Source of the DNA: Haliotis rufescens
Lineage: Eukaryota
Direction of reading: 5' to 3'
Length of the DNA stretch: 64,000 nt
Assembly (NCBI RefSeq): GCF_023055435.1
Contig: NW_025964383.1
Location: 46,066,001-46,130,000, forward strand
In this document: one piece after another, positions 24,881 to 61,296 of the stretch
Layout: each line of letters starts with the position of its first letter
How positions within the stretch are numbered: the stretch's first letter is position 1
Program-made: the position numbers and the translations under genes
The notes under the pieces: generated by a model
What the model was told of the DNA's origin: nothing
What the model saw: the letters and a program-made list of their open reading frames with translations, nothing else
Database searches by the model: none

Positions 24881-25338
24881 ACTCACTATCAAATAGTGAT
24901 TATACCTATAACTACGTTATAGCTAAACGTTGAAACGGTCGTTTCATTTGGTATCTGCAAATGCTTATGCAATTGTCTCGCAGTGCAGTGTTGTAAGTGT
25001 AAGTGTAAGCAGGTCATGATAGAAGTTGTCCGATAGTATGAAAGCAAACTTTTACCGATTATAACCAACCATGATTGATCTCTGATTTGGACAATTCCCC
25101 CATCATGTTCGATATTAGCCAAGGGGTCGCGTATATTTTGTTATTTTGTCATGGTAGAATGACAATAAACTAAACGGCATTGTTATAGAATCTACGCTGG
25201 AAACATCTAATTCAAAGCAGGTGTATCTTGACAACATATTTCACACTCAGAATATTCACTGCCGCATGGTACGAAACGTTTTCTGCTAGATATGCCCTAA
25301 AGCGTCAACTCACTTTCAACATCTAATCTTACAGCACC

Positions 25339-26524
25339 ATGGACAGAGGCTCCGTCCAGAACCTAGCTGCTGAAATACTGCGATGCATTCAGGATGAGGA
25401 ACGGAAGAAGCAGGAGGTGATGGACGCTCTGAAGCACCTAGCAGATGAACTGGATGTCAAGCAACGAGACATGAACATCGCCAAGACTGCCTTCGCATCC
25501 GGTGGGATCGCAGCTACAGGCTTAACTGTAGCAGGAATAGCAGCGGCCCCCTTCACCTTTGGAGCATCCCTAGGGATGACCATCGCGGGCGTTGCTCTTG
25601 GTGTGTCTAGTGGTCTTGGTGGACTGGCGACAACCATTGCTGACAAGATCATCAACAGCAAGACGATGACAGAAGCTCAAGCCAAGATTGACTATCAGAA
25701 AACTGTGACAGACTTGGCCAGCCTCCTTAAGAGTGTGAATTCCAATAACAGCCATGAACTTCGCAATAGGATCACTGAAGTAATCACCTTTTAAATATCT
25801 TGATGTTTTTCTGTCAGTTTATGTTTCTTTTTAGTTATAGACTCTTCATTGTAACCTCTCTTCAACCACTTAATCATGTGTCTGTTAGTGCAGCAAGATT
25901 ATAGTTTCAGAAATGAGATGACAACGTAGAACATACATGGATCAAACTGTGAAGAATTTTGAAGGAGTTTAATGTAACCTCTTGACTAAATGGGAACTAA
26001 TATATATCATACAAGATCAGAAGTCGCTAAGTAGAGCAACATGCTTTCAACTACAGGAAATCAACAGCCTGGGAGAAAGTGAGAGTCGGGTGACCCTGGA
26101 ACTGATCCTCAGTGGGCTGAAGACAGCAGCAGAGGCGGGCGGATCTGCTGCCAGGACAACAGCTGTTGCAGGGGCAGTCGCAGCTCGGACCACGTTGGCA
26201 GTGGGGAAGACAATGATGGACGTGATGGAGACGGGAGCCAAGGCTATGAAGATCGGAGGGGTTGTGCTGTCGGTGTTGACTGTGCCACTGGATCTGCACA
26301 CTATGATCTCCAACAGCATAAAGATCCATAAGAAGACGCCGTCGGAAACTGCAGAGGAGATCCGAAATATGGCAACACATTTAGAGAAACTAAATGGTTG
26401 GTGCTACGTCAGGTTCACTGCCTGCTGCTAAAGAAATGTCTTATTTATGTCCAAACAAACATGCACGTTCAATTGCATAGAATCAGTGATAACCAACAAG
26501 ATAGATGGGTTGAGTATTGAATAA
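25339..26524 (+). CDS. cassette gene A copy 3: apolipoprotein L-like; exons 25339-25779, 26057-26396, 26481-26524
   Basis: APOL signature, same splice sites as copy 2, one in-frame codon deletion (KIDYQK). Confidence 0.88.
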
Positions 26525-26587
26525 AGAATATGAACGGGTAATTTACCAGGGGAGTTAATATCACAGTTATTGTCCTTCCTCTGCCCT

Positions 26588-26761
26588 GAGTCAAATTCAA
26601 TAGTTAAGTCTAAAATCCTAACAGACAACCATAAACTATTTTGAAAATAATTTACAATTTAGAGTAACTAGATGTACTTGAAGTGACCAGTGCTGGTCAC
26701 TTCAAGTACATCTAGTTACTCTAAATTGTAGGAGTTTAGACTTAACTATTGAATTTGACTC
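26588..26761. repeat. near-perfect palindrome (38-bp arms 26653-26690 / 26693-26730, 2-nt loop, plus outer arms)
   Basis: tacaatttagagtaactagatgtacttgaagtgaccag-tg-ctggtcacttcaagtacatctagttactctaaattgta. Confidence 0.95.
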
Positions 26762-27201
26762 ACTTGAGTTTTGAAAAGAGGGCCCCTCTGAAGTATTTTA
26801 GTGAAAACGATATCTGCATGCACGTGTGCTGTGTGTTTTAGGTTATTGAAATATTATCTACATGTACAATGACGCTTTCTTTCTTGTTAGGACAGAACAA
26901 AATGTCGCTTTTTTTAAAACAGAAGCACACAGACGTTAATCGTGAATCAGCACTTAAGCCACTTTTAATTAGATTATTTATTTCACCTTCTTTTTGACAC
27001 AGATCAAGGACACAAAGCGTCGTATTTTATTGATGAAACAGCAAGTTAGCATGTGGTGACTAAACTCGGTGTAAAGTCGTAATGTCTAATCAGGTTACCC
27101 AACACCATGTCATGTTCACATTGAGCCTGAAAACACTAGAAAAGGTAATTTCTTGTTGATCATCAAATGGTAAATAATTATCTTTTTATTTCTATCCTCA
27201 G

Positions 27202-28160
27202 CTAAAATTCGCCGACAACGCGTGATACAGATAGTAGAAAAAGTACCTGCTGACGTAACTGAACTTGCCAGGAAGTATGATACGTCCAACTGCCTTCCTA
27301 CATTGCTCAAGCTGTTGTGTATCTGTGTGCAGGTCTCCGCCATTGTGTTCGTTATAATACTTCGACTGATGTGTGTTTTCGTGGATGTTTGGTTTTCAAC
27401 CTCTGCCCTCTTGAAATTATTCACAGCAACTGTAGTTTTGTGTGGACTAGTTATTCTTGTGTTAGAAATGTACTTGATTATTTCAGATAACTCCATTTGG
27501 GATGATGTGGGGTCGAAACTTGACAAATTTGTGAATTCAATCAAGTATGTCACCCGCATGGATGAAAATGAGTCTCTTCGAGCTGAAGTGCGTTCTCTTC
27601 ATTGTACAATTCAACACAAGATCCATGCTGGGGAGTATATGAAATCTAGCAACAGTGAATTTATATTGATTGCGGTAACATTGATTCTAAATGTCGCCCT
27701 GTTTCTGCATTGCTGGCATGAAGAGGCTACAGAAACTGCAGTCTTGAATGTAGAAGCATCTGCCCATTCTCTGGCAGTCTACACCAATAACCATTCTCTG
27801 GCAGTCTACACCAATAACCATCATATGGTTGGACTCGGTGGACTGATGTTTGGTGTTCTCTCTTTACCAATATCACTGTTTCTCCTGCAATCCTTGAGTT
27901 CAACAGTTCGTGGCCTTAAGAAATCAAAAGTGGCTGAGGCTTTGAAGAATCTTGGGGAGGATTCAGATATCGTTTTCACGAACTTCTCGTCGGAGAGGGA
28001 TGGTTGGATCATAGGTGAAATCCTCCCATATGTACCATGCTTGCCTAAACTAGACATCATATCGAGTGTCACCCATTTAACAGCTAGATCACATCGTCAG
28101 ACTCTACACAGTGAGACGTTCTTTGTCCAGACAGACCTTCAGGTGAAATCGTCTGGATAA
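27202..28160 (+). CDS. cassette gene B copy 3: diverged APOL-like protein with a 27-nt internal duplication and frameshifted C-terminus
   Basis: acceptor tatcctcag|ctaaa; HSLAVYTNN twice; 1-nt loss at gattcaga plus ~130-bp deletion reads into former 3' UTR. Confidence 0.65.
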
Positions 28161-28377
28161 ACAAATCATGAGTTTGTTGGGGACATCCCCACCAGGAATC
28201 AAGCTGTTTAAGATGTGTCCCACAGACTGTTTCATTGTGTAATCCCCACCCCTTAATGTTCATCCTACTTCAATCATGTTCTCCTCATTTGTTCCTGTTT
28301 TATCCTACAATGGATTCTGCTGATAGCAGATATTGGTATTATTATGGAATGGATTATGTCGCTTTTATTTAAGAAAT

Positions 28378-28520
28378 AAACGAAGAATGGGGGTTGTTCA
28401 TCGTACAATAAAACATTGCAGGGAGAATAAACCATGAGATGCGAAGTTCCGAGTGGTTTATTCTCACTGCAGTTTTTTTTTATTTAACGGTAAACAACGA
28501 CCACGAGTCCTTTATTTTTA
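28378..28520. mobile_element. hairpin head of a non-autonomous element
   Basis: tgcagggagaataaacca / tggtttattctcactgca stem with further outer pairing. Confidence 0.55.
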
Positions 28521-28851
28521 TATGAGATATTAACATTATGTACATAACTATCATAAGTTTTGTCTTTCCCGCATATTCTTACAATCCCCACGTCCATTAT
28601 CTGTACCTTTTCTCCTTATAGTGATTGTCATACTGCTGGTACTTCTTTGATGTGATCTTTTAGCCACTGCGTTTATCTGTGCTGCCCAGTCCAATTTACG
28701 ACGTCATTAGGTTGCGAGTGCATGATAATGATGATGGGTTATTCAGTGTATACAGATAACGCTGAATAATAATATACAGCAGTCGGATATTACACTTAAT
28801 TTATCTTTGTAACACACAAGTTTGTTTTGAGCTTTTTTATAGCATACTTAA

Positions 28852-30887
28852 AGGGGCACTGATCTAAAGCAATTCCCCGGGACTGGTTGTTGCCTTTGTT
28901 ATTGTTTATTCGTGAGTACCCGTGAGTACCCGGATGATATAGCAGAAATCTAGACAAGTACTCGAACTGTGCTGCGCCATTCGTAAGCGCATTTTTGTCG
29001 CCTTTATTGATAGGGTAAGAGCGTATTGTCATATTGATCAACAAACTGAAATACGGTTTAGTCTTGGAAATAATAACGACATGTTGATTTTTGCAAAGGT
29101 GATGGTGACAAAATTTTGATAAGTCACTTTCTTGGTATTGTGCGATTTTCGTTTACACTATTTTGAAAATATTTCACCTGTGCATTGCTTTTTTGTGTAT
29201 ATTTTATAGTCAAAATGTGTAACAATTTCACTTAGGCAATTTATTAAACGCCTAAATATTCAGTTATTTTACAAACTGACTGAACAATCTGTCCCGTTCT
29301 GTTATTATGATCACGAATTCCAAACATTTTTATACTTTACTTTCATCACCCAGTGACTGAAAATGATAGGATTAAAAGCAATCGAAATTCAAAGAACATT
29401 TCTATAGTTTTGGTCTTGTCCTACCATAATTAGTCTATTGATGTTTTAAGCCCATTTCAACCTCTTAATAATTGTTAAACAATCAGTTAAATAAATGGAC
29501 AGATGTTTCAGTCAATTTGGAAGTTACTGAAATATTCAGACATTTTATAGAATCACATTTTCACATTGACTGTAACAAATACAAGCCTCCAACGAAAAGG
29601 CTTGTGAAAACAGCGTCTGTCTCCCATCGAAGAACTTCCCAACGAAAACGTTGAGGAGCAAATATGATTCTATTCAATGCAATGGCAAATGATTAAAAAC
29701 ATATGCAAATATCATAATTACAACCTACCAATGTTAAATGCATAAATTTAGGCAGCTACCTTGTTTGAGGAATGTATCCGTGAATATCCACATTAAGGAA
29801 CAATATCCCATACGTCTGGAACTGTACAAATAACTTTATTCGATGTCACGTGTCTGTGTTACAATCAAATATTTTAAATATATATAGCTTTTCGGGATAT
29901 TATAACCGGTGTTCGTTTCCCAACTGATCACTTAGTTTGTTTGCAGTGTTTCATATAGATGTCAAGTCTCAAAGGCCAGCTGAGACAGCCCACGTGACAA
30001 CTATTTTCATAATGTCCATGGTTCTTAAAAAAACATAGCGTTAGATAACAATGAACAATCAATAAACGTTTTATCGGCTAATCCTTTGAATTAAGTATGT
30101 TGTTTTTGCATCGTCGCTTCACGCCCAGATATGGGGGTATTCCGTCTGCTTTCGTAAACCTAGACATGTAAACACTTACTATTAACAGATCCACTGTGCA
30201 AAATAACTGTGATTATTCAATCAACGTATTTTCTGCTGATCCTTAAATGGGAAGGAATGATCAGTTGATTTACCAAAAAAGTAAACCATCTCATAACTCC
30301 TCTTGCTGGGCTGCCACGTGCATATTACATAAGCTATATTTCACCCCACTTCAGACCGGGATACAGATTAAATAATTACCAAATGCCAAATGGGAACATT
30401 TGTCTGGTAATCCGAGTGGTGCTACCACTAATTATACCTGTAATAAATTAATTAACTAAGCTTCCAGTCAATGACAACACATATACAGGCGTAAGGTTAT
30501 ACCAGGAAACATGCGTGACAACAAGAGCGTAGCAATCGTATTACCCAGGCAATCCGGAAATGCTTCCACATCAGGGATACGTTTTATTATCATTAAACTA
30601 TAACCATCAGGGGTATTTCCAAAATAAGGACATCCGATGAGCTTTTGTATGTTTGTGTAGGCTCAAGAAATTGATTAACATGCACCCTATTTCGACATCT
30701 TCATACATCACGGGTATCCAATCAGTGTTCAAAATGCGTAAAAAAATATTGTCTCGAAGTATATTTACGCTGTCCTTACAGACCGCAGCCCAGTCTCTTG
30801 TCATGCAAAGTTGCGAGCAAATCGCAGCTAGTGAGCCCTAGCGGGCAGTGTCAGACAGCCAAGGAGAAGCCAGAGATTAAAGCCCCT
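28852..30887. mobile_element. Kolobok-like non-autonomous DNA transposon (TTAA target duplication, AGGGGC termini)
   Basis: ttaa|aggggcactgatct ... agattaaagcccct|ttaa; removing it restores sequence colinear with the paralogous empty sites at ~21080-21120 and ~7700-7740. Confidence 0.75.
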
Positions 30888-31284
30888 TTAACATAAATTT
30901 GAAGGTTTTAAAGACAATCGAACATGTATATGAGTTACAAGAGTGCAGTGCAACACCTTTGGTGACACAAATTCCACAACGGCGCAACGAACGTCCAGTG
31001 TTACAAAATACATAACAACCTATAGTACAGTTCTCCAGCTGACAGCTGATAAAGTGAAAGCACTTCGTTTCACCCGATCCCGTTAGTCGCCATGATGTAC
31101 CGTTACATTGGTATTGAAACAAAATACGTTCAAGGACCTTTCATACATCCCTGTTTGCCGGTTAAACACTTGAACGTTAATGATACATTGTATATACGTC
31201 ATCGATTTACGCTGTTGTGGACAGGTCATATGTTCCTTTCACATTTGACTCAAATTGTGTGAGATGGGATAATCACTCACCATA

Positions 31285-31797
31285 GCAGTATATGTTCTGA
31301 AAGAAAGATCCTGACAAACAATGGTAGTATATGTTCTGGACGAACGATCCCGACAAACAATAGTGGTATATGTTCTGAAAGAAAGATCCTGACAAACAAT
31401 GGTGGTATATGTTCTGGACGAAAGATCCTGACAACCAATGGTGGTATATGTTCTGGACGACAGATCCCGACAAACAATGGTGGTATATGTTCTGGACGAC
31501 AGATCCTGACAAACAATGGTGGTGTATGTTCTGGACGAAAGATCCCGACAAACAATGGTGGTATATGTTCTGAACGACAGATCCTGACAAACAATGGTGG
31601 TATATGTTCTGGATGAAAGATCCCGACAAACAATAGTGGTATATGTTCTGGACGAAAGATCCCGACAAACAATGGTGGTATATGTTCTGGACGAAAGATC
31701 CAACAAACAATGGTGGTATATGTTCTGGACGACAGATCCTGACAAACAATGGTGGTATATGTTCGAATTCTGAACGAAAGATCCCGACAAACAATGG
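31285..31797. repeat. 39-bp tandem minisatellite (~13 units)
   Basis: gttctggacgaaagatcccgacaaacaatggtggtatat repeated; 13-aa periodic ORFs. Confidence 0.95.
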
Positions 31798-32137
31798 CTT
31801 TCTTGTAAGCAAAACCATGTAATTCTTCTTAACCCATTTCTCTGACCAACCAGATGACTGCGTTCTTGCCGACACATATTCATCCCTTGTATTACATAAA
31901 TACACAGATTACTCTGATTGCGATGGATATGGAGAATACCACACGAGTGTATTCTTCGTTCTAAAACGGGTTGTGGAGAGGATCGTTGGTTAGATACGCT
32001 TTGAAATAACGAGTTTGAATAAAATAGAATTTATTGACAGGCACGATTGCAGGGATGTGTTTCTTACACACCTTAAAATTCAAGGTGCATATGAAATAGT
32101 CAACACCATGGGGTATCCAAACTCTGACGTTGGGGGA

Positions 32138-32260
32138 GTAAGTGAGTGAGTATTGTTTTACGCTACTTTTAACAATTTTACAGCGGGGGACACCAGAAAT
32201 GGGCTTCACAAATAGTACTCATGTGGGGAATCGAACTCAGGTCCGCTAGGATACCCCATC
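32138..32260 (-). mobile_element. tRNA-derived SINE with (CTCA)n tail, partial
   Basis: gggggacaccagaaatgggcttcaca..catgtggggaatcgaac is the reverse complement of the 36494 family. Confidence 0.8.
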
Positions 32261-33284
32261 GTCCCCTACGAGCTTAACATTTGGTCTCATACATATATTT
32301 GATACAAGTTATCTCAGATCGGTTTCTCGCCAACAGGGGTGTCTGTTGACGGTAGTCTTGTTAACTCCAGCATTTGCAGCATACACCTTTCCATCCCGTG
32401 ATATTATTAAGGTGGTGTGGTTCTAGGGTCGCGGGCCTGAGAGAAGCCGCCTCAAATGCAGATCTTGTGGGTTGTAGCAAATATTCAAACGGTCTGTAAC
32501 AGTGTCGAAAAAACTGATTTGTTCAATGAAATTCTGCTCGAAACAAAATTAAGGTGGTGTCAGGTAATTTAATAAAACCCAAAACGGTATTGTCCACTTT
32601 TCATGTTGGATGCCCTGAAACGCCCTGTTTTAAATGGTCGCTCTTAAGTTGAAACGACGCGTTAGTGATTAATGTGTTCCCTCGTGGCCCTGTCGACTCT
32701 TGTTCGATTCGACACCACAGTTACATGACACGCACACACACAAATACGTGCATGCACGTCACCATGTAAGTTCAATATTATTGAACGCGACGTTAAACCC
32801 CATGTCCCCTCACCTACAAAAGGATGTTTTCCTCTTTTACAGGCATTTCAGTGAAGACATAATGATATACACGACTCTTTAAATCTGTTGTCAGAATTAG
32901 CGAGTCCGCCTTCAAAGTGCGTGAATACATACGGCAGCCTGTAAACAATCGCGTCTTGATCAGACAACCCAGTGATACTAGACCAGACACTCCAGTGACA
33001 CAATAGCGTGTTTACTGATTGTGTACTAAAACTAAAAGTGATAAGTCAATTTTTTTAAACACATCTGCTGAAAGTCAGGTGAAAGGGACGCTAATAGGAG
33101 CTTGTCATATGGAAATTTGTGTACAATACAGTAGTCATGTACTAAGGGAAACATCTGTATCTTAAAACATGGGTGACTTTGTGTAAAATAGAGTAGCCAT
33201 GTACACAGATGCACATGTATACTTTACAACATGAGAAACTTTATGTGAAATACAATAGTCATGTACCTAAATGTACATACTCAG

Positions 33285-33545
33285 CTAACAATTTCACGTT
33301 GTGACAACGTTGTGGGAACGTTAAGACATAACGTCCATACAACGTTATTCTGTGGACGCCCATTCATGTTGTCACAAGGTTGTATGCTAACGTTTTGATA
33401 CGTCATATTCACGTCGTCACAATGTTGAGATAACGTCATAGGTTGTATTTTTACGTTGTGGGAACGTTGTAGTTTACGTTGTGGCAATGTTATAATATTA
33501 CGTCCCTACAACGTTATTCTGTGGCCTACCATGGACGTTGTCACA
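33285..33545. repeat. AACGTT-rich internally repetitive element (probable DNA-transposon terminus)
   Basis: repeated acaacgttgtgggaacgtt / acaacgttattctgtgg motifs. Confidence 0.5.
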
Positions 33546-34187
33546 CCGACATGAAATAATTTGTGTTTGAAGGAGATTTGTCGAAAGTTCTTTTGACAAA
33601 AATAATTATGCTTCAGACTGGTGCAGGCATAGAACAAAATGCTTTTATACATTCTTAGGATTCATTTAAAGCCACAAAACCACCATCATGTAAATGGACC
33701 ATGGAATTTAACAACTGAACTTACGTTAACATAATTCACAGCCCCGGGTTTATTTTGTGTATTCCTCAATGATCCAGCAATCCTGTTTTCCTGCTCGTGT
33801 CTCATTTTCACCCTTGCTGCAGCAAAAACGACAATGTTTCCCATTATAGCAAAGTCAAAACTAGAACTCAACTCTTTAATAAAACAACTATACATGTATA
33901 ATTTTGATGACACCGGGCCCGATCGTTTATGTATGGTAGAAATTTATATGTTATTTCTCAAGTAATCATTAAGTTTCATTAAGTATAAGAGTAAACATGC
34001 AGATTGCCCGAAACGTAATATTGTGGCGTCGCGACGGAGCAATTCGCCCAATCGCAGCTGCAATGCCATATACGTGCAGCATGCAATTTTCTGAACTGCT
34101 GTGACTATTCCTGTCTCGGCAAGGTTTAAAAGGCTAGGACAATTACTGCTGACACACATATCAGAAAATTAGAAAACGGGCCGTTAT

Positions 34188-35070
34188 GTGCCAAGTCTAT
34201 CAGAAGCTAAACGCAACAACGCCATTGGCCGACTGCAAGTGGGTGAAACACATCAGCATGTGGCGCAGGCGATGGGTGTGATCAGATTGACCATCTCTAA
34301 CTTGTGGAGACGTTACAACATCACCGGCAAGGTTCGTGACAGGCCATGGTCAGGACGACCTCGCGTTACAACGCCTAGCCAAGATCGTTTACATCCGGAA
34401 AGGCACCTGCGGAACCGTTTCATCACTGTCGAGAGCAGTCGGTATTCTAGCCGAGAGACCCGTGCAGCGTAACATCCTGACGCCGCATCACCTGCGTGAA
34501 CGTCTGCAGTGGTGTTGTCAGAGAGTCACACGCCCTCAAGCAAGATGGAAACGGGTTCTGTTCACGTCTGCTAAGACGTGCTGATGGACGTGCCCGTGTG
34601 TACCAACGTAGTAACGAACGTTTCGCTGCGAATTGCGTTTAGCAAGTGGATCGACTGGAAGTGGAAGCGTCATGGTTGTGTGAGAGTGGATGGTGCTCTG
34701 AAAATGGTCTACGCTATTGAGATCCTGCAGCGCCACGTTGTCTCCTTCATCAACGTTTAATGGCGGCATCTTTAAGCAGGACAACGCCAGACCCCACGTC
34801 GCACGTGTGTGCACAGACTTTTTTGCGTCAGAACAACGTGCCCACGCTACCCTGGCCTGTCAGTTCGCCAGACTTGTCCCCTATTGAACATCTGTGGGAC
34901 GTGGTGGATCGTCGTGTCCGTCAACGTCAACCACCGCCACAGACACTTCAGGAACTGTTTGTGGCGCTAGGGCAGGAGTTGCAGAACATCCCCCGGGCTG
35001 TTATTCAGACTTTGATCGCGCCTCTGGGCAGTCGCTGCCATGAGATGATAGCAGCTCGAGGAGGATATAA
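34188..35070 (+). mobile_element. Tc1/mariner transposase remnant (frameshifted, internally deleted)
   Basis: HTH region NAIGRLQVG..TISNLWRRY..RSGRPRVTT-like, WKRVLFT, QDNARPH, WPVSSPDLSPIEHLWD. Confidence 0.92.
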
Positions 35071-36092
35071 CTTTTCTCATACCCCGGACGTCTTTGCACC
35101 TGTTTTTTTTAAGTGTATATTGTACAGCAATAGTTTACCTATACATTCCACTATTTATAATATTTATTAAATTTTAACACGAAAAATAAAAAACAACCGA
35201 GTTGCAATCCTGATGTATTGTCTTTTGTTTGACCAGTACTGAAACTGTGGACAGTTCCCCGCTCTCTCATCACACCAGGCATCAAACGCCAGTGCGTCTT
35301 GTTCCTCGGCAGTGGCTCGTTCAGTGTACGTGTCATGCGCGTCATGTTGCAGGTTATGCATAGTGGCAGCTGTCACCTGATGCGCGAAACATGTGCTGCT
35401 CGCAGAAAGGAGTCAGCCGTACCAGAGGTTGCTATCTAAGCCTGCACAAGGGCCTGTGTCCACCCACTGCCCTGCAGCCAGTCTCCTGCAGTCTTCATGG
35501 CCGCCATTTCAATGGGAAGACCACCTTAGATTATCACAAAGTGGTCTTCCCCGTGTGTGTCTGGCCAGTTCCATTGTATTTGTATGACAATGGCTGGTCG
35601 AAAGACACATCCAGGTGTGGATTCAGGCGGATGACTGCTTCCTAGACAACATTCATGGAATGGCGGTTCATTGCCACAGAGTGAGCTTTGTCATGAAAGA
35701 GTGGGAGCAAAGCAGTTGGGGTGACTGCATCATGATCTACTGGTACACTATGACTTTTTGACATTATGATGAAGCAGTTCTATTCGTATACGACTATCAA
35801 GAAGCAAACTGTAAAAGGTTTCACCGTAGGTTCTGAAACGTAGTTACAAAACGTTGTGTGATGTCTGATGTACAACTTTTTCTTTTCGTTGTACCTTACA
35901 ACATGTGGGATTTTTTGTTAAATAGATGTACCTAGATGCACATGTTTACCTTATACCTCGATATTACTAATGCACCGAGAAATAACCATGGCTTTAATCA
36001 ATGAAAAAAAACCAATTACTCCTTTCTACCTGGTAATAGCCATCGGTGACATTTGCGGGCATGTCAAACTAATTATATATATGTAATTTCAG

Positions 36093-39000
36093 GGGAAAAA
36101 CAAGCAATAAAGGCGAAGGACAACATATCAACACTGTGGCAGATATTTGTCGCCGTTGTTACTACTGTTATTGTGGAGATTATCATCATTATTCTAATAG
36201 GTGTAATGTACACAAGGTAAGCACACACCGACCAACATATCACACAATGTGTGTTTAGTGAGCAAATGTAAATCGTACCTGAAACTGTTCCAGTGCTTAC
36301 TTATCCAATAAACATAAAATACATGCCCCAAAACCATCACTAGAAAAGACATAGCATCGTAATTGAGTACACGTCCATTTAACCAATGTCAGTGAATTCT
36401 GCAGAAGAAGCTATGCAGTGGTAGAAATACGTAGAAGTACAACAGCAACGAGCAGGACAGCTAATTGTCTCTATCTTAATTCATACTTTAGACGGGGCGG
36501 TCGGGTAGCCTAGTGGTTAAAGCTTTCGCTCGTCACGCCAAAGACCCAGGTTCGATGCCCGACATGGGTACAATGTGTGAAGCCCATTTCTGGTGTCCCC
36601 CGCCGTGATATTGCTGGAATATTGCTAAAAGCGGCGTTAAACCATACTCACTCATTCACTCATACTTTAGACAATCAGCTGAAAGTCAGATGACATTTAC
36701 GGAAGTTAAAAACGTTGTGATAAGATTTCTCAAATATTCATGGGACATTACAGTTGACGTATGCATATGAGTCTGGATACAATAGATGGACTCGCAGTGA
36801 CATGTAATGATTTCTTATACATGTATTTAATAAGTTTTATGAATTGTTTTTATTTTCAGTCGACGCAAAAACAGTAAGTTTAACAAACTTTGAATACATT
36901 TTCTAAAGTGTAATGTGAGTGAAAATATATTATTTACTCAAATTGGAATGATGGGGTGATATAACTTTTAATTAATTTCAATTGTTACTTTCCAGCAATG
37001 TGATAAGCTCAAAAATAAATTATGTAATTTGATTCACAAATCTACAACCAACTACATAATCACTTTGAAAAGAGTTAAACCTTATAACATAATAAATAAG
37101 AATAGATCTTCTAACATATAAAGTTCCTGCTCGTTATGTATATTAGACTTATGAATAATGATGGGAAATTATACGCCGTACTGTACACAGTTCTGTTTTT
37201 TGTCTTCGATCACATAATTCAATGGACTATTTTAACCTTTGGCGTCATAACAAACGTAAGCAGTAATTATGTTGTATGTAATCCATTCTCTAATTATTAA
37301 CCTAAGCATGCATACGGAATGTTTGGTGACCGGGCAAGTTCGACGAGACATAAGTTTTGTAGTCCTTGTGCCTCGTTGTAGTTGGGCTATAGTGAGAGGG
37401 GGGCGAGCTTTACTCGTGCTTTTAATCACTGGTTTGCCTGGTCCAGACTATTACTCGGCAGGTCTGATTTGTGTAATGTTACGTGATCCTGTTGAAAGAA
37501 CTATTGACTACAAGTCTGTAGCATGAGCACCACGTTACACATGTTCTCCTTGTTCTCAGGAGCGGAAAATTAATCCTAATTAACGGTAAGGGTATAACTC
37601 ACTGACCAGTAGCTGTGGTTACCCACCATCCCATCTATTCATTGTGTATAATCAGTTGTTCTGGCTGTCACTGCTGGGGGCTACTAATCCACCCGTCAGA
37701 AAAGTTTCAGCTTGAAAGCGAAAGATGGGAGAATCTATTTATCATCCAAACTCATTCTTCCAACTTTCTGCTTTTCACCCGTGAGTGAGTGAGTGATTTT
37801 GGTTTAACGCCGCTTTTAACAGTATTCCAGTTATATCGCGGCGAGTCAGCTTTTTGTAGGAGGAAAGCCCGAAGTGATGCAGGTCTTGGACGTTTACCAC
37901 TTCGGTGAAACCCACGAGCACGGGTATGCTGCTGACAAACCTAGAAACATAATCGGGGCGAACCGGGATTCGAACCCACAATCAAAGATTTCTAGCGTAC
38001 CCACGGGACGCAACTCTGCACAGCGAATCGTGGCGCCTTAGACGATTGGACCACCCGTGCCCCCATTTCTCCCGTGAAGTTTACGGTCAGAAAAGATCTT
38101 CATCAACCCATGCTTGTCGTAAGAGCCGACTAACGGGATCGGGTGGTCAGGCTAGCTGACTTCGTTGATGCATGTCAACGTGTCTGAATTGTGTAGATCG
38201 ATACTCATGATGTCAATCACTAGATTGTATGGTCGAGACTCGATTATTTACAGACCGCCGTCACATAATAGGAATATTGCTGAGTGTGGCTTTAAATAAC
38301 AAGCAAATAAACAAACTTCTGCTTGTAAGCAGTAATAACCGTTGTTTTGAGTGTAAATAGCACAGCTTCAGCTTCAGTAGAAGAGATATAAGTGATGTCG
38401 TGTGGTCCTGAAGTCATTATGCTCCTACATTAGGCAGACACATCGATTTATACATAATTGAAATACTTCACCCACTTGTTTATAGTTGATCCTTCTTCAG
38501 GGCATCCATGTTCAAGCCAAAGTTGATTGGAGTCAGCCAATTTCGTTTAAACTACAACAAATGTTAGCATACCTATCGTATATGAAAGTAACCGTCTTTT
38601 GTATTTTGTCTTTAAGTGACCTAACTTTACGACAGGTATTGATGCACGAACAGCGTTATGATCACATATTTTACGTTATTGATTTATCGGCTAAACAGTA
38701 TCCCATACTAGGATGCATATATTTATCCCTATTTTCCAATACACACATCTGCAGAATAGGATGCAAAATGACGCATGTAAAAAGAAAAACACGTTCATGA
38801 CCATGAGGAATCATAATATAGTATCAACGTTGACAAATATGCAGTTCTTGCACATTTAGTGGCAGTTAATGTAAAATGTTTAGATGACAGGTCTGAGTGT
38901 CCAACTGTACAGTGTATTTAAACTGACATGATAACGCGTGGCATGCACCTTTCACACAAAATATTATTACACATTTTATAAAGCTATTAATTACCAGATT

Positions 39001-42000
39001 TCGTTCTTAACTACATATCATTTATTATTTTGTTCTCAGATGAGGCAAGCGAAGAACTTTTGGAAGGTAAGAGTAGAATTCAACTCAGATTGTTTATGGT
39101 TTTGTTATATGAAAGGGTAGATAATGTTGGCTCCAATCTTTTCACCTTGACAAAAGAACAGGCAATTAAAATAGATCACTCAGTTTTGCTGAGAATCTAT
39201 CTCAACTTAGGTATTGATTCCATTGAGACATGTGTAATGTCGCATAAAAATATGAAAATGACAAATATCACCTTTTTGTAATCAGATGACCACAATTTAG
39301 ATGGGTAATCAAACGTTGATAAGGTGAAATGAAGACGGATTATTAATGAGGCTCTAGTTTTCTTGTCTTCAGAAATTGTACAAAAAGCTGCGAAGGAATG
39401 GTTTTAACCGGTTTGTCATTTATGTCACAGTTGACACGGATCTATCATATGGTGTTATCATTTACTGCAGTTACATACACATGTGCGATGTAGTTTTAAG
39501 TTGTAATGTTTAAGCTAATGCCTCGATGCATCGCCACCGCATCATAAAAAAAACTCTTATAGTAATGGCCATATGATGATGCAGATAAGATTAATAACAG
39601 AATTCGAAGGGATATGCATGTTGTTACATGGGTGATGATTTCACATCTTTAGTCAGATTTAGCAGTATGTCATACTTTTCTCCTCAGTAAGCAGTGACGA
39701 CACATGGTATACATACCATAATCACAGAGGTGAGATGAATAACATAGTTTCACATAGTCGTGATGACTATTAAATTAATGGCTAAAAAGAATCAAATAGT
39801 TTTTATATTGAGAGTTAAAAGCATTAATGCCGTTACATAATCATGTTGAGGCATGAGTGTCTCAATCGTTCAACGTGACACAATTCACTATCCAGTTGCA
39901 TTCCTTGTCGTGACGGTATCCAGTGATCTTCGGTCGGTATCACAGATTATGATTACATTGTTGTGTTGCCAGTGGTTATACAAAAGTGGTAAACGTCTAG
40001 GATCTGCATGGGCTTTCTTCCAACATTAAGTTGACACGTTTCGATATATAACCGAAATATTGTTCGATGCAGCATTAAACAAAAACTACATAGTCACTAT
40101 AAAATCATGAATTCCTTAATGAAACGGGTTATAAACAATTCATATATACATGTAAAAAGTTAATATTATCCTTATTTCACAGAGCAACACAAAATGCCTA
40201 TTGCCAACATCCCGCTTCATGATGCCAGTGCTAAAGGTGATCTGGAACGCGTAAAACACATCGTGAGTACTGGTGCAGTAGACGTCAACATCCGAGGGTT
40301 GTACGGATTGACACCGTTGATGTTGGCAGCACAGAACGGGCACTATGATGTCTTTGAATATCTTCACAGTAACGGAGCTGATTTGACGCTAGTGGATCGT
40401 GATGGGGACCACATTCTGAGCATGGCCTGTGTGGGAAACAATATGGACATGGTGAAGTATGTTGTCTCAAAGGAACCTACCCTTATCAACAAAAGGAGAA
40501 ACGACGGACGAACAGCTTTGATGTGGGTAGCATGGCATGGGAAGGAAACCGTGTTTCGCTATCTGCTGGATAAAGGAGCTGAATGTTCATTAGTGGATAA
40601 TGATGGACACAACACTCTTCATTATGCCTGCCATGGAGGACACATTGGAATCGTGAATTATGTCATCGATAGGCCCACACTTAATATCAGCAATAGAGAC
40701 TTACGTGGAAGAACAGCATTAATGATAGCAGCTACGTACGGACATAAAGATGTGTTTGAATTACTTGTTGGGAAAGACAGTGACATATCACACACAGATA
40801 AGCACGGTAACACTATACTCCATGCGGCATGCAGTGGAGGAGATGTGGAGATGGTGCAGCATGTCCTCTCACAGGAAGATATTTACATCAACTGTAGAGG
40901 GCAGAATGGGGGCACACCACTGATGTTTGCAGCATTTGGGGGACACAGAGAGGTATTTGACCTACTTGTGACGAAGGGAGCTGATGCAACACTTGTTTGT
41001 AACAAGGGGAACACCATCCTACACGTGGCTTGCATTGGAGGACATGTGGAGATGGTGGAGCACATCATGTCACAAGGCATCGGGGACGTCAACAGTCAAA
41101 ATCAAGATGGGAGGACGCCACTATTGTTGGCAGCATTTGGTGGACACAGAGAGGTATTTGACCTACTCGTGAGAAATGGAGCTAATGCATCAGTAGTTTG
41201 TAACATGGGGAACACCATCCTACACGTGGCTTGCATTGGAGGACATGTGGAGATGGTGGAGCACATCATGTCACAAGGCATCGGGGACGTCAACAGTCAA
41301 AATCAAGATGGGAGGACGCCACTATTGTTGGCAGCATTTGGTGGACACAGAGAGGTATTTGACCTACTCGTGAGAAATGGAGCTAATGCATCAGTAGTTT
41401 GTAACATGGGGAACACCATCCTACACGTGGCTTGCATTGGAGGACATGTGGAGATGGTGGAGCACATCATGTCACAAGGCATTGGGGACGTCAACAGTCA
41501 AAATCAAGATGGGAGGACGCCACTATTGTTGGCAGCATTTGGTGGACACAGAGAGGTATTTGACCTACTCGTGAGAAATGGAGCTAATGCATCAGTAGTT
41601 TGTAACATGGGGAACACCATCCTACACGTGGCTTGCATTGGAGGACATGTGGAGATGGTGGAGCACATCATGTCACAAGGCATTGGGGACGTCAACAGTC
41701 AAAATCAAGATGGGAGGACGCCACTATTGTTGGCAGCATTTGGTGGACACAGAGAGGTATTTGACCTACTCGTGAGAAATGGAGCTAATGCATCAGTAGT
41801 TTGTAACAAGGGGAACACCATCCTACACGTGGCTTGCATTGGAGGACATGTGGAGATGGTGGAGCACATCATGTCACAAGGCATTGGGGACGTCAACAGT
41901 CAAAATCAAGATGGGAGGACGCCACTATTGTTGGCAGCATTTGGTGGACACAGAGAGGTATTTGACCTACTCGTGAGAAATGGAGCTAATGCATCAGTAG

Positions 42001-42410
42001 TTTGTAACAAGGGGAACACCATCCTACACGTGGCGTGCATTGGAGGACATGTGGAGATGGTGGAGCACATCATGTCACAAGGCATTGGGGACGTCAACAG
42101 TCAAAATCAAGATGGGAGGACGCCACTGATGTCGGCAGAGCTGCAGGGATGTGGTGAAACCCTTCTGAGTCCAGGTGTTGATCTATCACAAATGAATGAT
42201 AAAGGAAACAACGTCCTTCATCTGGCCTGTGAAATAGGAAGTATGGAGATCGTGCAACATGTTGTGTCACAGAACAGTCTTGACATTAACGCCAAAAACA
42301 GTAAAGGCGAAACAGCCACTAGGGTTGCAAAGCGTAAACATCACATGGATTTGTATGAATGGTTGGTGTCACAAGGAGGTCATGTTGTCAGCAAGTCTTA
42401 CAAACACTAA
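36093..42410 (+). CDS. single-pass membrane protein with cytoplasmic ankyrin repeats; exons 36093-36216 (TM), 36860-36873, 39040-39066, 39688-39729, 40183-42410; ectodomain exons not found
   Basis: phase-compatible GT-AG exons give LWQIFVAVVTTVIVEIIIIILIGVMYT-SRRKN-NEASEELLE-VSSDDTWYTYHNHR-EQHKMPIA followed by ~20 ankyrin repeats (GxTPLxxAA..G, GNTILHxAC..G). Confidence 0.8.
36494..36661 (+). mobile_element. full-length tRNA-derived SINE with (CTCA)n tail
   Basis: A box tagcctagtggtt, B box ggttcgatgcc; flanked by a catactttagac direct repeat (TSD). Confidence 0.9.
37780..38065 (-). mobile_element. tRNA-derived SINE with (CTCA)n tail
   Basis: minus strand ggtccaatcgtctaaggcg..gggttcgaatcccgg; tail gagtgagtgagtga on the plus strand. 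Confidence 0.8.
38070..38315 (+). mobile_element. SINE-like interspersed repeat
   Basis: aacccatgcttgtcgtaagag..cagaccgccgtca..gaatattgctgagtg; family present four or more times in the window. Confidence 0.8.
40905..42130 (+). repeat. coding tandem repeat, 201-bp unit (67 aa = two ankyrin repeats), ~6 copies
   Basis: unit offsets of 201 bp (41102, 41303, 41504, 41705, 41906 in the ORF track). Confidence 0.95.
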
Positions 42411-42419
42411 CGATCTCAA

Positions 42420-42652
42420 GAATAGGTCTTCAGCAACCCATGCTTGTCGGAAGAGATGCCAATGCTTGTCGTAAGAGGCGACTATCGAGATCGGGTGGTC
42501 AGAGTCGCTGACTTAGTTGATGAATCTCATCTTGTCCTAATTGCGTGAATCGATGCTCATGATATCAATCACTGGATTGTCTGGTTAAGACTCGAATATT
42601 TACAGACCGCCGTCATATATCTGGAATATTGCTGAGTGCGGCGTAAAACAAA
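42420..42652 (+). mobile_element. SINE-like interspersed repeat in the ankyrin gene 3' region
   Basis: same family as 38070-38315. Confidence 0.8.
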
Positions 42653-43732
42653 CAGCATGTTATGCAACAGATATACTCTTATCTTGTCTTCTCTAATGAA
42701 ACTGTTTCCACATAGAGCTCGGGAGAAATGCTTAACATTGATCTGTCAACTAAGGTGGTAGTACAAACTGAACCATACAGAAACATGCAGAAATCTGAAA
42801 GCTTGTGTCCCTTGTCCTACATGTAATAGCAGGTGATGGGTATTCAGCTGAAGCTGATAAACACCTGAATGTGGCTCGACCGCTACACATTGAATACTAA
42901 AGTGTCCTTCAATGTTGAATCCTGCATCCATAGCTTTGAAACACAAAGGAGATTTGTTAATAACAGTTGAGCTGTTGTGACAGTTGTCTGTATGGTAGGA
43001 TTTGACAAACATTGACCATTTGCCTTCTCTTCAAATATCACTCGTGCGTTAGTGATTCTACAAATATGATTTCTATTTCTCAGGATAACGAATTGGGACT
43101 TGCATTTTGTAATGTGATCAGGCTACAAAACAGTACAATAGAATTGTCACCTCAGCCTTTATATATTGTGTTTGGTTGTAATGCGTGCTGTTGTTAAGAT
43201 AGAAATAATCTTCTTTACAGGGAACCATTATACCCTTCATCCATGAAAGAGATATTCAAGTCACAAATACTCGAATATGAAATGCAGAAAGGCAGCGTGT
43301 CTTTGATGCCTAAACAAAGATCGGTTTGTTCTGGTTGTGTAATGGGTGTGCTAGCTAGAGAGTGTGTCGTACACAACACTGAGCTGTTGTGTTTATGTTG
43401 GCTTGGTTGATTTCGTGTGCAGAAACGCTGTCGGTCGTCTGTCAATTAGACTGGAGGTTCAGAGTTGATTTCCTTTTGTAATTACTGTTGCAGAACTGTC
43501 TTACAATGTTTCAAAGCGATCCCATCAGAACTCCCTGCAGCGAAAATTCAAACAGAAACTAAATATTTCCTTAAAGTGTGAAAAGTGCATTGCGTATGAA
43601 AGGCTGTCACCATAAAAAAGAACAACACACTGAATGATTGATTATTAAGTCATCATCACAACACAGGGTTGAGGGTTAATATCGCTCGTAAGTTACATAC
43701 GTCATTATCATTCTTTGTATATATCGCTTGTG

Positions 43733-45320: not shown

Positions 45321-46134
45321 CATAATTTTTTCAATTTGAAGTTTACACGATATACGGCTTTTCCATTGGACGAGAGGTCGTTCACATGACCGCGGAATTG
45401 ACGTTCATAAGTGTATGAACGACACAATTTGACGTTCATACGTTTTTCACGAGATCGTGTTCTTGAAATGACGTAAACACTGACGAACTACTTCCACATT
45501 CCTGGAGAAACCCCTGGGAATTCCCTAGCACGAAAACATACATAAGCTTTCTTTCTGGTCATTAAGAACCTATATTGTTTGTTCGTACCTAGGCTGACAT
45601 TGACCGTCTCCAGCAATCTATGAATTTACCTTAGTATCTTTATTCACCTTTCAATGATCGGCCAGTTGATCAATGATGATTAACACATGTAACCGCCACA
45701 GATTCATTAACAACTTCGGAAATCTCTCCCGTCACGTTTATCAAGTCGGCCATTTTGACGTCTTGTACTTGATGTAAATGTATTACGTACGACGCGCTGT
45801 CATTGTGACTGACTTACTGAGGTAGTTCTTTACAGACCTTTTTCATCTAAGGAGGATATGATTTGAACACATGTGCTGCGTAAGATGTTTCTGAAGAGCA
45901 AGCCCATGTCACCTCTCCTTTTGACGAACTTTTTTACTCCGCGATATAGCTGGTTGTTGTATGGCTGTCGGTGTAAACATGAAGTCACACTAACTAAATA
46001 AAATTGTGTTTATCCTTTGAGGTAAGAAATTGTGTTAAAAAATTATAACAAGCTCCGACGTTCATACAGTTTGGCCCTCACTCTATGAAGGTTCATACTC
46101 CAATGAACTCACACAAAGTGAAGGTCAATTCGTA

Positions 46135-53273: not shown

Positions 53274-53305
<32 letters not shown>

Positions 53306-57430: not shown

Positions 57431-60400
57431 ACACTTCAAGACTTCTTTGTCGATTCTGTGTTTGGCGTTCATTGTACTAACCATACGAGGTAAGTTTGTT
57501 AAATATACAGTGTTTAGTCACGATCTCCGCCACATAGGACCAGTATGTGACTAATACAATATCTCTTCTGAAGACATTTTATCCAACACAGATATATAGA
57601 ATACTAAACGAGCTCCCGTGTAATACCAATTTTATGAAACGAGTTCAAAGACAACTATTCACGAGTTTCATAAAATTGGTTTAACACGGGAGCGAGTTTA
57701 GTATTTTATTTATTACTTGCCATTTATAACGTTTTTAGAATTATACTGTTGAGTATGAATAGGCCGACACCTACACGATCCACGGCCGATTGAGTCAAAT
57801 GAGTCCAATTGAGTTTAACATAATACTACTTCAAACACTTCAACAGTTAGAACGTATGAATTTAATACCATACAACGGTCAACCTTTAGAATTCAGGCGT
57901 CCGTTCCACAAAATTATCGTAGGGCTAATCGCAACTCACATACTTTAACTTAGACTAACTTCTGTCGTTGCGCTACACTACGATCGCCTTGTGGAACGGG
58001 CCTTGCACCTTAAAGTTTACAATCACGTCACAATACCCGATGACGTAAATTGTGGAATTTTGTTGCACGATCCATTGGCGAAACAATGCCATGTGACGTT
58101 AGCCTAGCAACAAGGTTGCTGGGGTCATCGGGTGTGCATAAGCTCCTCTCAGTGATCTATCAACTCCATACGCAATGTTGTTGAATAAGCCAAGGGATGT
58201 TGAGAGCTTTCAATATTTGTTCGTGAAACGTGTTCCGAGAGTACATAAGCACGCGTTTTGGTATTACACGATGTATAATACAGCTGTATGTTTATTAAAC
58301 GGGTGATCTCTTCACGGGCAAGTAATAGAAGGGCTTATTGGACTGTGGATACTCTTTGTTCCTTGCGTCTCATGGCCTTGGACATGGGCGTCTCAGGGTC
58401 GATGTAAGAAAGCCTATTTATGATCCTTTGTGAAATTTGTCAAAATCACTGTCCGTTTCCGGCAAACTCGCACCATGGTTATAACTCTTTTAACCCTCCG
58501 GTTGTCTCGAACTTGCCTACGGATAAGCGAAATGTGAGAGACGGTTCAGGATAATGTTTATTAATATGTTGTTCTAACTATGACATTTAATTGCGCCGCT
58601 TGTCGGCGTGAGTAGAAACATGATTGAGGAAAAGGAAAGGAACGAGAGGTATGTACGTACATGCTTTCTGATATCTGACGGCTAGTCCGGACCTTAGTTG
58701 GGTCGGGTCGAATGTTTCGAACTCCCGGATAAGTCGAACTGTTTCTCTAGTCACCAGGAGTTCCCGGCAATATTCGTCTTGGTGAACTTATGGTTAAACA
58801 AAAAGCATTTGAAGTGTAGGTATATGGCAATGTGCATATCAAACAATTTTTTTACTTGACATCCCCAACTTGACCATGTCACAGTTATGTCCCCTTATTG
58901 ATTTCATATGGAATTTCATCCTGATTCTATGTTTTCAGCCACGCCATGCCGTAATGGTCAGCACTGCCGAGAATGTGACGATGACGGAGACTGCTCAACA
59001 CAGTGTGAACGTGGATACTTTGGGAAGAAATGCAGGTCAGAGTGCAGCAGCAGATGCACACATAAGTCGTGTAACCTCACAGCGGTAGGCATCGAGACTT
59101 GCACGGAGGGATGTGTTCCAGGATTCATGGGTACAAGCTGCAAGATACCATGTGGCAACCCTGGGACACAGTGTACGGAGTGTGAAGGTGGATGTGATGG
59201 CGGGTACTGCATGCTGAGTCCTACGTCGTGTGTTTCTGGATGTGTTGACTCCTACTATGGCCTTGACTGTAAGCACTGCTCTGAGAGATGTAAATCATGT
59301 AACAGGTCTACAGGAATATGTGTCCTGTGAGAAGTCATGTGAGAACTGTGCAGGATCTTGTGAGTCTGGATGTGAAGGAGGCTGTAAACCTGGCTTCTAT
59401 GGACATTGGTGTGATGAGGTGTGCAGTGAAAACTGCCGCTCTGGTCCCGACAGAGATTCAGTTTCTGTCTTGGAATGTGACAGAAATACGCCCAACAACT
59501 GTATCCGGGAGTGCGACAACAACACAGGAGATTGTATCCACGGTTGTAATGTCGGGTGGTATGGTACTAACTGCTCATCTCGCTGTAGCTCGAATTGTGC
59601 AAATCTGTCCTGCACTGAGTCAGGAGCGTGTGTTGATGGTTGTGCACCAGGGTATGCTGGGACTGACTGCTCATGCTATGAGAACTGTATTCAAGATATT
59701 TGTCACCCCAACTTCGGACACTGTGTGAAAGGATGCATCAACGGTTATTATGGTGCCTTTTGTAACAACACCTGTGAGATCTGTCTTGACGGCATATGTG
59801 ATTGGGAATTAGGAACCTGCATTCGAGGATGTAATTTTACTGACCTTTGATGCAAATCGACCTGTACACATGATTGTCCCTTAGATGTTTGCCTTACTGA
59901 TATGTCTTGTGAAGGTAGGTTCTTGAAATATGCATTTATAGATAGATCAAATAATCATATATACCATCACTTTGTGTCTTTATCCATTGTCCATGCTGAA
60001 CGTCTTTTCGGGACCCAGGATGTTGTTTGAAGATGGATGTGGGGAAAGAAATACCATTGAAGTTGTATTTATTGACCAATGTGTATTTGTCTTCACAATT
60101 CAGTTAACAATCCCATCCATCTCAAAATACGACGACGTCTCTGCAACATCCTTTAACATCATGTGACATATTTAACCATTATTGAAAAAGTCAGAGTGCA
60201 GTTCAATCGCCTCTGGAATTAACCATTGACTGTTACTTGTCATGTATTGCACGTGCATGGGGTAAATCATTGGTCGCGTTTGAACGTGTGTGCTTGGGTA
60301 GCTCCGTCCATCACCTGCATTCTTGCACTTTTCAATTTTTTAATAGTCGCTGTCGATCTCCTCCAGTTTCATAAAAGCATCCAATCAGTGGGAATGAAGC

Positions 60401-61296
60401 AAAAACAGCATGTTTTCAACTGTTAATCACATTGTCAACATACTCAGACCTATTGTCACATGTTTCCCTGACTATTGATGTGTTGTTATTCAGCAGGCAA
60501 GCAGGCGCAGATGGATATCAAGTATATCGTAATAGGACTGTCAACATTGCTTGTTCTTACTGGCATCCTCTGTGTATTTTGTTTTGGAAAACGCTGGTCG
60601 AAAAGAAGGTTAGTCTTCAATTGCGCCACTGTTTTTTCCTCGTATTTTGAGTTATTTTATGTTTCTCTGCATAAACATCAGAACACAAGCGACAATAGAC
60701 TATTTACATATCGAAAGACATTTAGTCAAAACTAAAATCTTTTAAGGAAGGAGTATTTCCCAAATGATCCAGGATGTACTTACTTAGCAGGTACGAGTCT
60801 CCCGAGATATCGTGGATCCAAATCCCAGGATAGACCAAAGTATGATCATTGTCTGTCAACATCATACACGTGCCAGTGGGCGTAAACATGCTGTATCATC
60901 TAGCTCGATGAAAAAGGTCTTCCAAGCTATTGAGTGTTCATGTCTTCTTTTTCCTTTGTATTTCACAGTAAATTTCATTAACCTTCTCAATGTATACACA
61001 GGAACGCTGAAGCACACAACTACATAGTCTAGTACGAGCCTCCATCAAACAGATATTGGGAAATAAGAGAATCAGATGTGGACCAAGAATGTGACTACCC
61101 TGAAAATGAGTCATCTGGTGTTTTGGCAAAACAGCTTCAGGAGTCACACGGTAGAGGGGCGCACGGTGACATTTCCTCCGATGATACTTCTGGAGACAAC
61201 CCGTCGTACACTCACCTAGTGAGGGACATCGGTGTCGATGATAAAACAACCGATATCAAATATATAACACCATCTGGGGAAAAGGATGTGGAGTAA
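57431..61296 (+). pseudogene. MEGF10/11 / Draper / SCARF-like multiple-EGF-repeat receptor, disrupted; exons 57431-57489 (signal peptide), 58939-59914 (EGF-like), 60494-60608 (TM), 61002-61296 (tail)
   Basis: C..GYFGKKC, C.PGFMG..C, C..GWYG.NC repeats; TM IVIGLSTLLVLTGILCVFCF; frameshift ~59325, in-frame TGA 59848-59850, in-frame TAG 61030-61032; no in-frame ATG found. Confidence 0.85.
57596..58330. mobile_element. non-autonomous hairpin-headed element (intronic)
   Basis: aatactaaac..ctcccgtgtaataccaattttatgaaac / gtttcataaaattggtttaacacgggag..gtttagtatt stem; tattacttgcc / ggcaagtaata inverted pair. Confidence 0.7.

Follow-up and report, generated by a model that had tools for sequence, protein, structure and literature searches.

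The locus studied here raises a simple question: is its long ankyrin frame a gene in its own right, or is it the tail of a membrane receptor? The window (the whole stretch analyzed, 64,000 nucleotides of Haliotis rufescens contig NW_025964383.1, from 46,066,001 to 46,130,000 on the forward strand) is numbered from its first letter; positions in Mb are those of the contig. The public database entry for the frame is a free-standing 738-aa protein with its start Met at 40194. A preliminary description, made from the window alone, had joined the frame in phase to a transmembrane (TM) exon through micro-exons of 14, 27, and 42 nt and had read the product as the tail of a receptor.

RESULTS

A micro-exon chain leads into the ankyrin exon

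All coordinates of the chain held on reanalysis. A 124-nt exon for the stalk and TM segment (36093..36216, phase 1 to 2), aligned here to six paralog TM exons, is followed by a 14-nt exon carrying basic juxtamembrane residues (36860..36873, phase 2 to 1), by the 27-nt (39040..39066) and 42-nt (39688..39729) exons, each phase 1 to 1, and by the last, ankyrin exon (40183..42410), with its acceptor at 40183 in phase 1 and its stop at 42408-42410. All lie on the plus strand, the AG/GT ends are canonical throughout, and the spliced chain is in frame and stop-free, with 810 aa counted from the TM exon. The assembled codon at 36176-36178 places a Glu inside the TM helix.

The phase test is weak on its own, 27 and 42 being multiples of three, and a candidate 26-nt exon (37560..37585, plus strand), for which no paralog support was seen, also fits in place of the 14-nt exon. 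Phase alone therefore proves little, and homology was used as the test. The 14-nt exon is present in 8 of the 12 genes of the cluster described below, with a 20-nt version in a ninth. The 42-nt exon has homologues of the same length and with the same flanks in three other paralogs and 30-nt homologues in two, and a 14-aa stretch similar to its product is present in H. rubra protein P0131. In a blind scan of 464 kb, the 14-nt pattern was found six times on the plus strand, five of these directly after a family TM exon, and once on the minus strand; other exon lengths from 9 to 49 nt gave 0 to 3 matches each. Judged by these sequence comparisons, the micro-exon chain is more than chance. Two further 19-nt micro-exon candidates at the locus were set aside, since the paralogs give them no support.

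A pattern count gives the ankyrin frame itself 22 motifs, and Pfam marks 17 Ank stretches in it. Within it lie six tandem 201-nt units (40925..42130, plus strand) with two ankyrin repeats each, and units 2 to 5 differ by 0 to 2 nt from one another, which shows that the array expanded very recently. The 2.2-kb frame and all splice sites are intact, observations that, with the new expansion, count against decay; an intact frame and a fresh expansion are not what an old pseudogene shows. In a database protein search, the closest relatives of the frame were all Haliotis proteins, and paralogs were 55 to 71% identical to the exon across its first 250 aa. A downstream paralog is 93 to 99% identical to the 3′ portion of the exon together with some 20 kb of flanking sequence, which suggests that the headless gene may also be a recent crossover chimera.

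The chain belongs to a family of predicted receptors

Three RefSeq paralogs from the same tandem cluster consist of a signal peptide, an 85-aa Cys-rich domain, a TM segment, and 8 to 11 ankyrin repeats. These H. rufescens models are computed; each gave an exact spliced alignment to the contig as one exon chain. A Cys-rich exon ending in phase 1 comes before a TM exon of 118 to 136 nt (phase 1 to 2); the 14-nt exon is found in all three models, a 27-nt exon in two, and a further 27- or 30-nt exon in two, and each chain closes with a phase-1 ankyrin exon. A 27-nt exon is left out of one isoform. The locus shows the same series, with a TM exon of phase 1 to 2, a 14-nt exon, symmetric micro-exons, and a phase-1 ankyrin exon.

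The protein search proposed in the preliminary description did recover Haliotis proteins of the Cys-rich-TM-ankyrin type. Among 39 proteins inspected (query record included), seven at 40 to 71% identity combine a Cys-rich domain, partial in one of them, with one TM segment and ankyrin repeats, and most have a signal-peptide-like start. Many Haliotis ankyrin models have no TM segment. In a wider search, 12 of the best 150 of 49,496 matches have Cys-rich, TM, and ankyrin parts in that order, 11 of them named Haliotis, from four species, and one with an incomplete name; most entries in this list are ankyrin-only proteins, and it is no gauge of the family's absence outside abalones. The one non-abalone Cys-rich TM match looked up is a bivalve receptor phosphatase.

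The cluster, at 45.44 to 46.27 Mb, holds at least 12 family TM exons, a lower bound because coverage was continuous over 45.83 to 46.29 Mb and otherwise came from five 20-kb stretches. Breakage is common among these 12 genes: two have ankyrin fragments only, two have no ankyrin exon nearby, and one has a stop. Of five units sampled outside the cluster, three show the full Cys-rich-TM-ankyrin exon order; in a fourth, the Cys-rich and ankyrin exons were seen but no TM was detected, and the fifth has no ankyrin exon within 20 kb. At E<=1e-15, the Cys-rich exon matched 104 of the 150 candidates scored (of 1859 in all), a figure that includes many other receptor types and is not a gene count.

The ectodomain unit of 85 aa has 14 invariant Cys residues in all 27 aligned exons, together with a variable loop; among the TM-bearing members listed, most have one unit and the largest number is 4. 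It has no Pfam match and no PDB sequence match. Structure searches with its model (pLDDT 69) gave no significant match, with SCARF1 and Tie2 on top (SCARF1: Foldseek E 0.13; Z 2.3, rmsd 4.1 over 48 residues). Related ectodomains in abalone carry the RefSeq names SCARF1-like and MEGF10. No catalytic Pfam domain was found in the family tails, and the design remarked on in the preliminary description, TM followed by ankyrin repeats with neither kinase nor death domain, is real in the intact paralogs, of which XP_048247258 is an example.

Median dN/dS is 0.50 for the ectodomain (53 of 55 pairs) and 0.59 for the ankyrin region (27 of 28 pairs), and pairwise values for the locus copy, at 0.53 to 0.80, lie at the top of the family range. 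Diversifying selection on the ectodomain was considered and rejected, dN/dS exceeding 1 in only 2 of 55 close pairs with the median as given. Values of 0.5 to 0.6 show fast evolution with weak constraint rather than positive selection.

This is, then, a large abalone family of predicted surface receptors with ankyrin tails, carried under generic ankyrin names. We found no description of the Cys-rich-TM-ankyrin architecture in the full-text literature covered, from which subscription journals are largely absent. The design thus seems undescribed, yet it is implicit in RefSeq models with misleading names; its novelty was judged from main-text passages, and the domain tables of PMC12627906 could bear on it.

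The front half of the gene is missing from this assembly

In 11 of the 12 cluster family TM exons, a Cys-rich exon lies 0.8 to 7.4 kb upstream; the TM exon of the locus is the exception. No signal-peptide or Cys-rich ectodomain exon was found in the 61 kb upstream in this assembly. A DNA profile of the Cys-rich exon (nhmmer), run over these 61 kb on both strands, had a best E of 4.2, while the six training paralogs used as a control all scored E<1e-113. None of 39 blastn matches upstream overlaps a paralog 5′ exon, and a targeted local alignment to 31800-33400 scored no better than shuffles. Two masked stretches in the gap, of 150 and 197 nt, are below the exon size of 256 nt and more and could hide a small exon. 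All 12 close Cys-rich exons in the cluster are already paired with their own TM exon.

Several candidates for a hidden head were tried and rejected. Two faint tblastn matches near 32650-32770 might have marked a decayed Cys-rich exon; the nhmmer result and shuffle tests speak against it (in the best case, 3 of 100 shuffles scored as high or higher, over six tests). A head hidden by inversion on the minus strand was rejected, the profile giving no match on either strand of these 61 kb. The GC-rich stretch at 35229-35745 has no useful open frame as an ectodomain exon; it has dispersed copies of 78 to 86% identity on other contigs, and we take it to be a transposon fragment. As for a substitute first exon in the gap, with a Met, a signal-like sequence, and a phase-1 donor, ten candidates were seen, three of them hydrophobic, and none was family-like.

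What remains upstream is a remnant of the family's ectodomain-to-TM intron (33100..33280, plus strand), the most distant trace of the gene in that direction. Apart from the inverted copy, one other match to its core was listed, in the same intron of a paralog. The remnant's surroundings (24941..35959, strand unassigned) form a block in which a copy of APOL and remnants of transposons lie with a portion of the gene's intron, and this block has an inverted duplicate 37 to 61 kb upstream at 90 to 98% identity. A distance of 133 nt separates the end of the 11-kb inverted duplicate from the TM acceptor. Where the inverted copy has its far end, sequence matching a paralogous unit at about 99% breaks off abruptly, 25 kb ahead of the window start and 0.6 kb short of the position of that unit's first exon; the locus lacks that unit's promoter region. 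The family intron traces are broken up by a Tc1/mariner-like transposase remnant in the former intron (34721..35170, plus strand; DDE_3, E 1.3e-4, below the curated cut-off) and by other repeats, with APOL genes further upstream.

We infer a deletion that took out the promoter, the first exon, and the exons for the signal peptide and the ectodomain. With the head exons absent, the first in-frame Met of the chain is at 36206, at the TM end, and a transcript would therefore give a soluble ankyrin protein. Going by the assembled sequence, the locus copy cannot make the family's type I receptor. The receptor reading of the preliminary description thus survives in part: the frame is the 3′ exon of a TM-ankyrin gene, but the head that would make it a receptor is absent here.

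Reads and alleles at the locus

Three read sources, X1, X2, and X3, were guessed to be RNA, X1 and X3 coming from one study; a large run, X10, whose kind is unrecorded, was taken as DNA. Mapping was swamped by SINE-like repeats, and none of the 15 joints shown, of 2043, is an exon junction of the locus, all 15 lying in repeats. Contig depth over the TM exon is 6.9 in X1 and 3.31 in X3. The mean depth of the bin with the 27-nt exon equals 24.9 nt (X1) and 24.6 nt (X3) at TM-contig depth, and in X3 the bin with the first 14 nt of the 42-nt exon has a depth equal to 16.4 nt; four neighboring intron bins, that of the 14-nt exon included, are at zero in X1, X2, and X3. If the terminal AG counts as part of the next piece, this arithmetic would fit a spliced contig in two of the three probable RNA runs. 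In X2, the TM and 27-nt bins are uncovered, and a contig of depth 2.7 lies in the intron at 39734-40000.

An A>G difference at 36177 in X1, X3, and X10 changes the TM Glu to Gly. Since the reads carry Gly and not Glu, the reference allele may be atypical and more decayed than the expressed ones. An X10 contig of another organism departs from the window sequence upstream of 36004, 90 nt before the TM exon. The fit of the X1 and X3 contigs to the spliced form and this departure of the X10 contig both run counter to a headless gene. No database protein with the TM exon of the locus was found at E<=10 (three candidates; weak evidence). Other alleles may still be whole.

Neighboring genes

The preliminary description had set the locus between APOL effectors and an EGF-repeat receptor. 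APOL-like frames are indeed nearby (PF05461, E 3.5e-16 and 4.6e-6), and downstream (58939..61296, plus strand) lies a gene for a long Cys-rich receptor with a TM segment and a short tail rich in Tyr, but this is a separate gene and a pseudogene, with a frameshift and stops; its main exon is open in 8 other copies and broken in the window. Such long Cys-rich receptors alternate with the ankyrin-receptor genes in the array and have retained several Tyr motifs in their short tails. Neighboring genes on the contig have 100% matches among RefSeq H. rufescens proteins, which marks the assembly as that of red abalone.

DISCUSSION

We think it probable that the locus is the back half of a family member whose head exons are gone in the assembly, and that it likely yields a soluble ankyrin fragment or is a young pseudogene. 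That the ankyrin ORF is an independent single-exon gene, with micro-exons that are chance splice-like sites, we find hardly credible; the database model is the bare 738-aa ORF and the X2 coverage would suit it, but the size, phase, and flanks of the micro-exons are conserved across paralogs, and the blind scan gives a null against chance. An assembly error around the inverted duplication, suggested by how near the duplicate ends to the TM acceptor, is a very unlikely source of the missing head, given that the two copies differ by 2 to 10% plus indels, that native intron sequence crosses the duplicate's end, that the junction is sharp, and that no spare close-type Cys-rich exon appears elsewhere in the genome among the best candidates. 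It is also highly improbable that a distant head is borrowed, through splicing across the APOL block into the TM or ankyrin exon from an ankyrin-less family gene about 95 kb upstream or a long Cys-rich gene about 65 kb upstream. The former does consist of head, TM, and 14-nt exons in compatible phases with no ankyrin exon; however, both genes have TM exons of their own, several genes lie between, and the ankyrin-less type recurs at 45.80 Mb (dS 0.08), with no ankyrin exon within 20 kb.

More serious is the possibility that the complete receptor exists in other individuals or related species and that the reference haplotype carries a structural variant in which the head was lost. This would be compatible with a headless back half in the assembly and, if correct, would make the receptor claim right at the population level. 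Reads of organisms A and E give the TM Gly where the assembly has Glu, the contig of organism E diverges just upstream of the TM exon, and passages of PMC12627906 describe ankyrin-rich abalone chromosomes as nonsyntenic between haplotypes. Against this, none of the three candidate database proteins carries the TM exon at E<=10, which is weak evidence, no relative exceeds 71% identity among the 120 of 290 matches listed, and organism E also has pieces of the inserted block at about 98% identity. The open frame, intact splice sites, newly expanded repeats, and probable transcription would suit a headless copy that selection keeps for a soluble ankyrin product with its start at Met 36206 or 40194, acting as a decoy or inhibitor of the partners of intact receptors; so would the many Haliotis models without a TM segment, but these may be mere incomplete annotations. 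With the locus dN/dS at the top of the family range and the promoter region of the paralogous unit missing, we regard such selection as unlikely.

The intact members invite comparison with Notch/LIN-12 proteins (as defined in passages of PMC8166818), which are likewise single-pass, with a Cys-rich ectodomain, cytoplasmic ankyrin repeats, and no enzyme domain. The Notch ectodomain has 29 to 36 EGF repeats, whereas that of the abalone family has about 85 aa (one 14-Cys unit); a Pfam scan of P0051, P0131, and P0133 at E<=1 found neither LNR repeats, of which Notch has three, nor a NOD or NODP domain, for all of which the ectodomain is too short; and the family differs further in having no conserved RAM motif and no PEST tail, in carrying 8 to 22 ankyrin repeats in one exon, and in its many fast-evolving tandem copies. 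The Notch-type layout in abalone is likely convergent. The RAM motif of Notch is xWxP, which occurs in 4 of 16 family linkers and in 1 of 13 short ones. That intact members also work as Notch does, shedding the ectodomain so that gamma-secretase frees an ankyrin tail that acts in the nucleus, is the chief rival mechanism but strikes us as rather improbable. The topology is the same, an Atlas feature search put Notch clusters first (0.90; 122 to 127 of 256 features, where true family matches typically share 170), and a basic cluster follows the TM segment in 15 of 16 linkers; on the other side stand, besides the linkers without xWxP, the lack of LNR, NOD, and Pfam EGF matches and the observation, made by eye, that most proteins stop right past the last repeat.

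The tail of the intact members has no catalytic domain, so signaling must run through recruited partners. We somewhat favor a mechanism in which the putatively SCARF/MEGF-like ectodomain would bind a ligand or a partner receptor, and clustering would then present the catalytically empty ankyrin repeats as a scaffold for cytosolic signaling proteins; clustering of such a scaffold would be the simplest mechanism. The alternation of the two gene types in the array suggests paired receptors, and the long Cys-rich receptor with its Tyr motifs might be the partner, a speculative and doubtful pairing. The history of the locus would be one of birth and death through unequal crossover, with loss of the head, insertion of a transposon, and arrival of the APOL block.

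Clustering, fast evolution, and analogy with SCARF-like clusters and with the enrichment of abalone ankyrin genes may point to an immune role. One can envision, tentatively, that abalones independently evolved a Notch-like design in dozens of fast-evolving tandem copies, which would form sensor-transducer pairs with the long Cys-rich receptors in innate recognition, the headless or tailless copies being decoys or presence/absence variants. If the family reading is correct, many abalone ankyrins would be tails of surface receptors, joined by micro-exons that are often dropped in annotation, and much of the reported abalone "ankyrin expansion" would be a receptor family. Stress and survival studies in abalone repeatedly report ankyrin genes as unnamed soluble "ankyrins" (passages of PMC5405107 and PMC12627906), and identity as receptor tails would change their possible meaning there. 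The family is also a testable candidate recognition family for abalone disease resistance. The locus itself carries less weight; it illustrates either gene birth and death or structural variation.

A signal peptide, Cys-rich units that in the abalone family may be Tie2/EGF-like, one TM segment, and tandem clusters with gain and loss link the family to receptors of the SCARF1/MEGF10/CED-1 type and to the LG5R "scavenger class F-like" cluster of Biomphalaria described in passages of PMC13712769, where SCARF-like clusters are linked to parasite resistance. Their tails are short or carry phosphatase domains, in contrast to the ankyrin array of the abalone family, and the word "ankyrin" has 0 occurrences in the main text of that paper. 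SCARF, MEGF10, and CED-1 also have a long EGF-like array, whereas the abalone family has mostly one unit. In passages of PMC12627906, duplicated abalone ankyrin genes are enriched on a structurally variable chromosome, and host defense is suggested; the genes are treated as ankyrins and phosphatase subunits, and neither "EGF" nor "transmembrane" appears in the main text of that paper.

ANKRD50 and the ankyrin subunits of PP6 share long ankyrin arrays with the abalone family but lack its signal peptide, Cys-rich domain, and TM segment. Both are soluble. The ANKRD50 and PP6 names that RefSeq gives to family proteins are automatic best matches.

The RefSeq model P0014 describes a paralog that neighbors the window's ankyrin gene and lies at 46.23 Mb of C605 (the contig that holds the window). 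It begins within its 42-nt micro-exon (C605:46232645-46232686, in stretch L077), and the upstream Cys-rich and TM exons are left out. This model is probably an incomplete annotation.

The family also has an ankyrin-less subfamily, with a signal region, a Cys-rich exon, and a TM segment, at C605:46006001-46016000 (L061) and C605:45799001-45819000. No ankyrin exon was found near either member; the 14-nt exon is also present in the L061 member. It is possible that these genes encode decoy receptors or that they are pseudogenes. Three further protein records of the abalone receptor family (P0140, P0152, and P0170) form a long-tail subtype, with several hundred residues separating the TM segment from the main ankyrin block. 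Within the window, a candidate 26-nt exon with strong splice sites (37560-37585) could substitute in frame for the 14-nt exon, as a mutually exclusive choice; no counterpart of it was seen in the paralogs.

Long Cys-rich TM receptor genes are interspersed alternately with the ankyrin-type genes, with one copy in the window (58939-61296) and others at 45.92, 45.97, 45.99, 46.04, 46.14, 46.20, 46.21, and 46.25 Mb of C605. Their short acidic tails retain several Tyr motifs, some of which we take to be ITIM-like. The window copy carries a frameshift and stops, whereas the main exon is open in the other eight.

The roughly 20 kb downstream of the ankyrin gene (42128-62000) is a segmental duplicate, at 93-99% identity, of the region after the 46.23-Mb paralog. 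The 8-nt word at 35984-35991, 24 nt past the inverted duplicate's near end (block 24941-35959), recurs at the far junction, roughly 25.17 kb ahead of the window; this may represent microhomology at the rearrangement.

The window holds three APOL-like gene copies (within 8571-20064 and 24941-28378), two of them mutually inverted (92%), and further ones are found outside it, 13-15 kb ahead of its start and roughly 155 kb beyond its end. Every window copy adjoins a hydrophobic open frame of 280-330 amino acids; the one such frame scanned had no Pfam match. Other long open frames, at 263-1548, 31239-32030, 46039-47558, 52525-53741, and 55034-57080, consist of tandem or simple repeats only.
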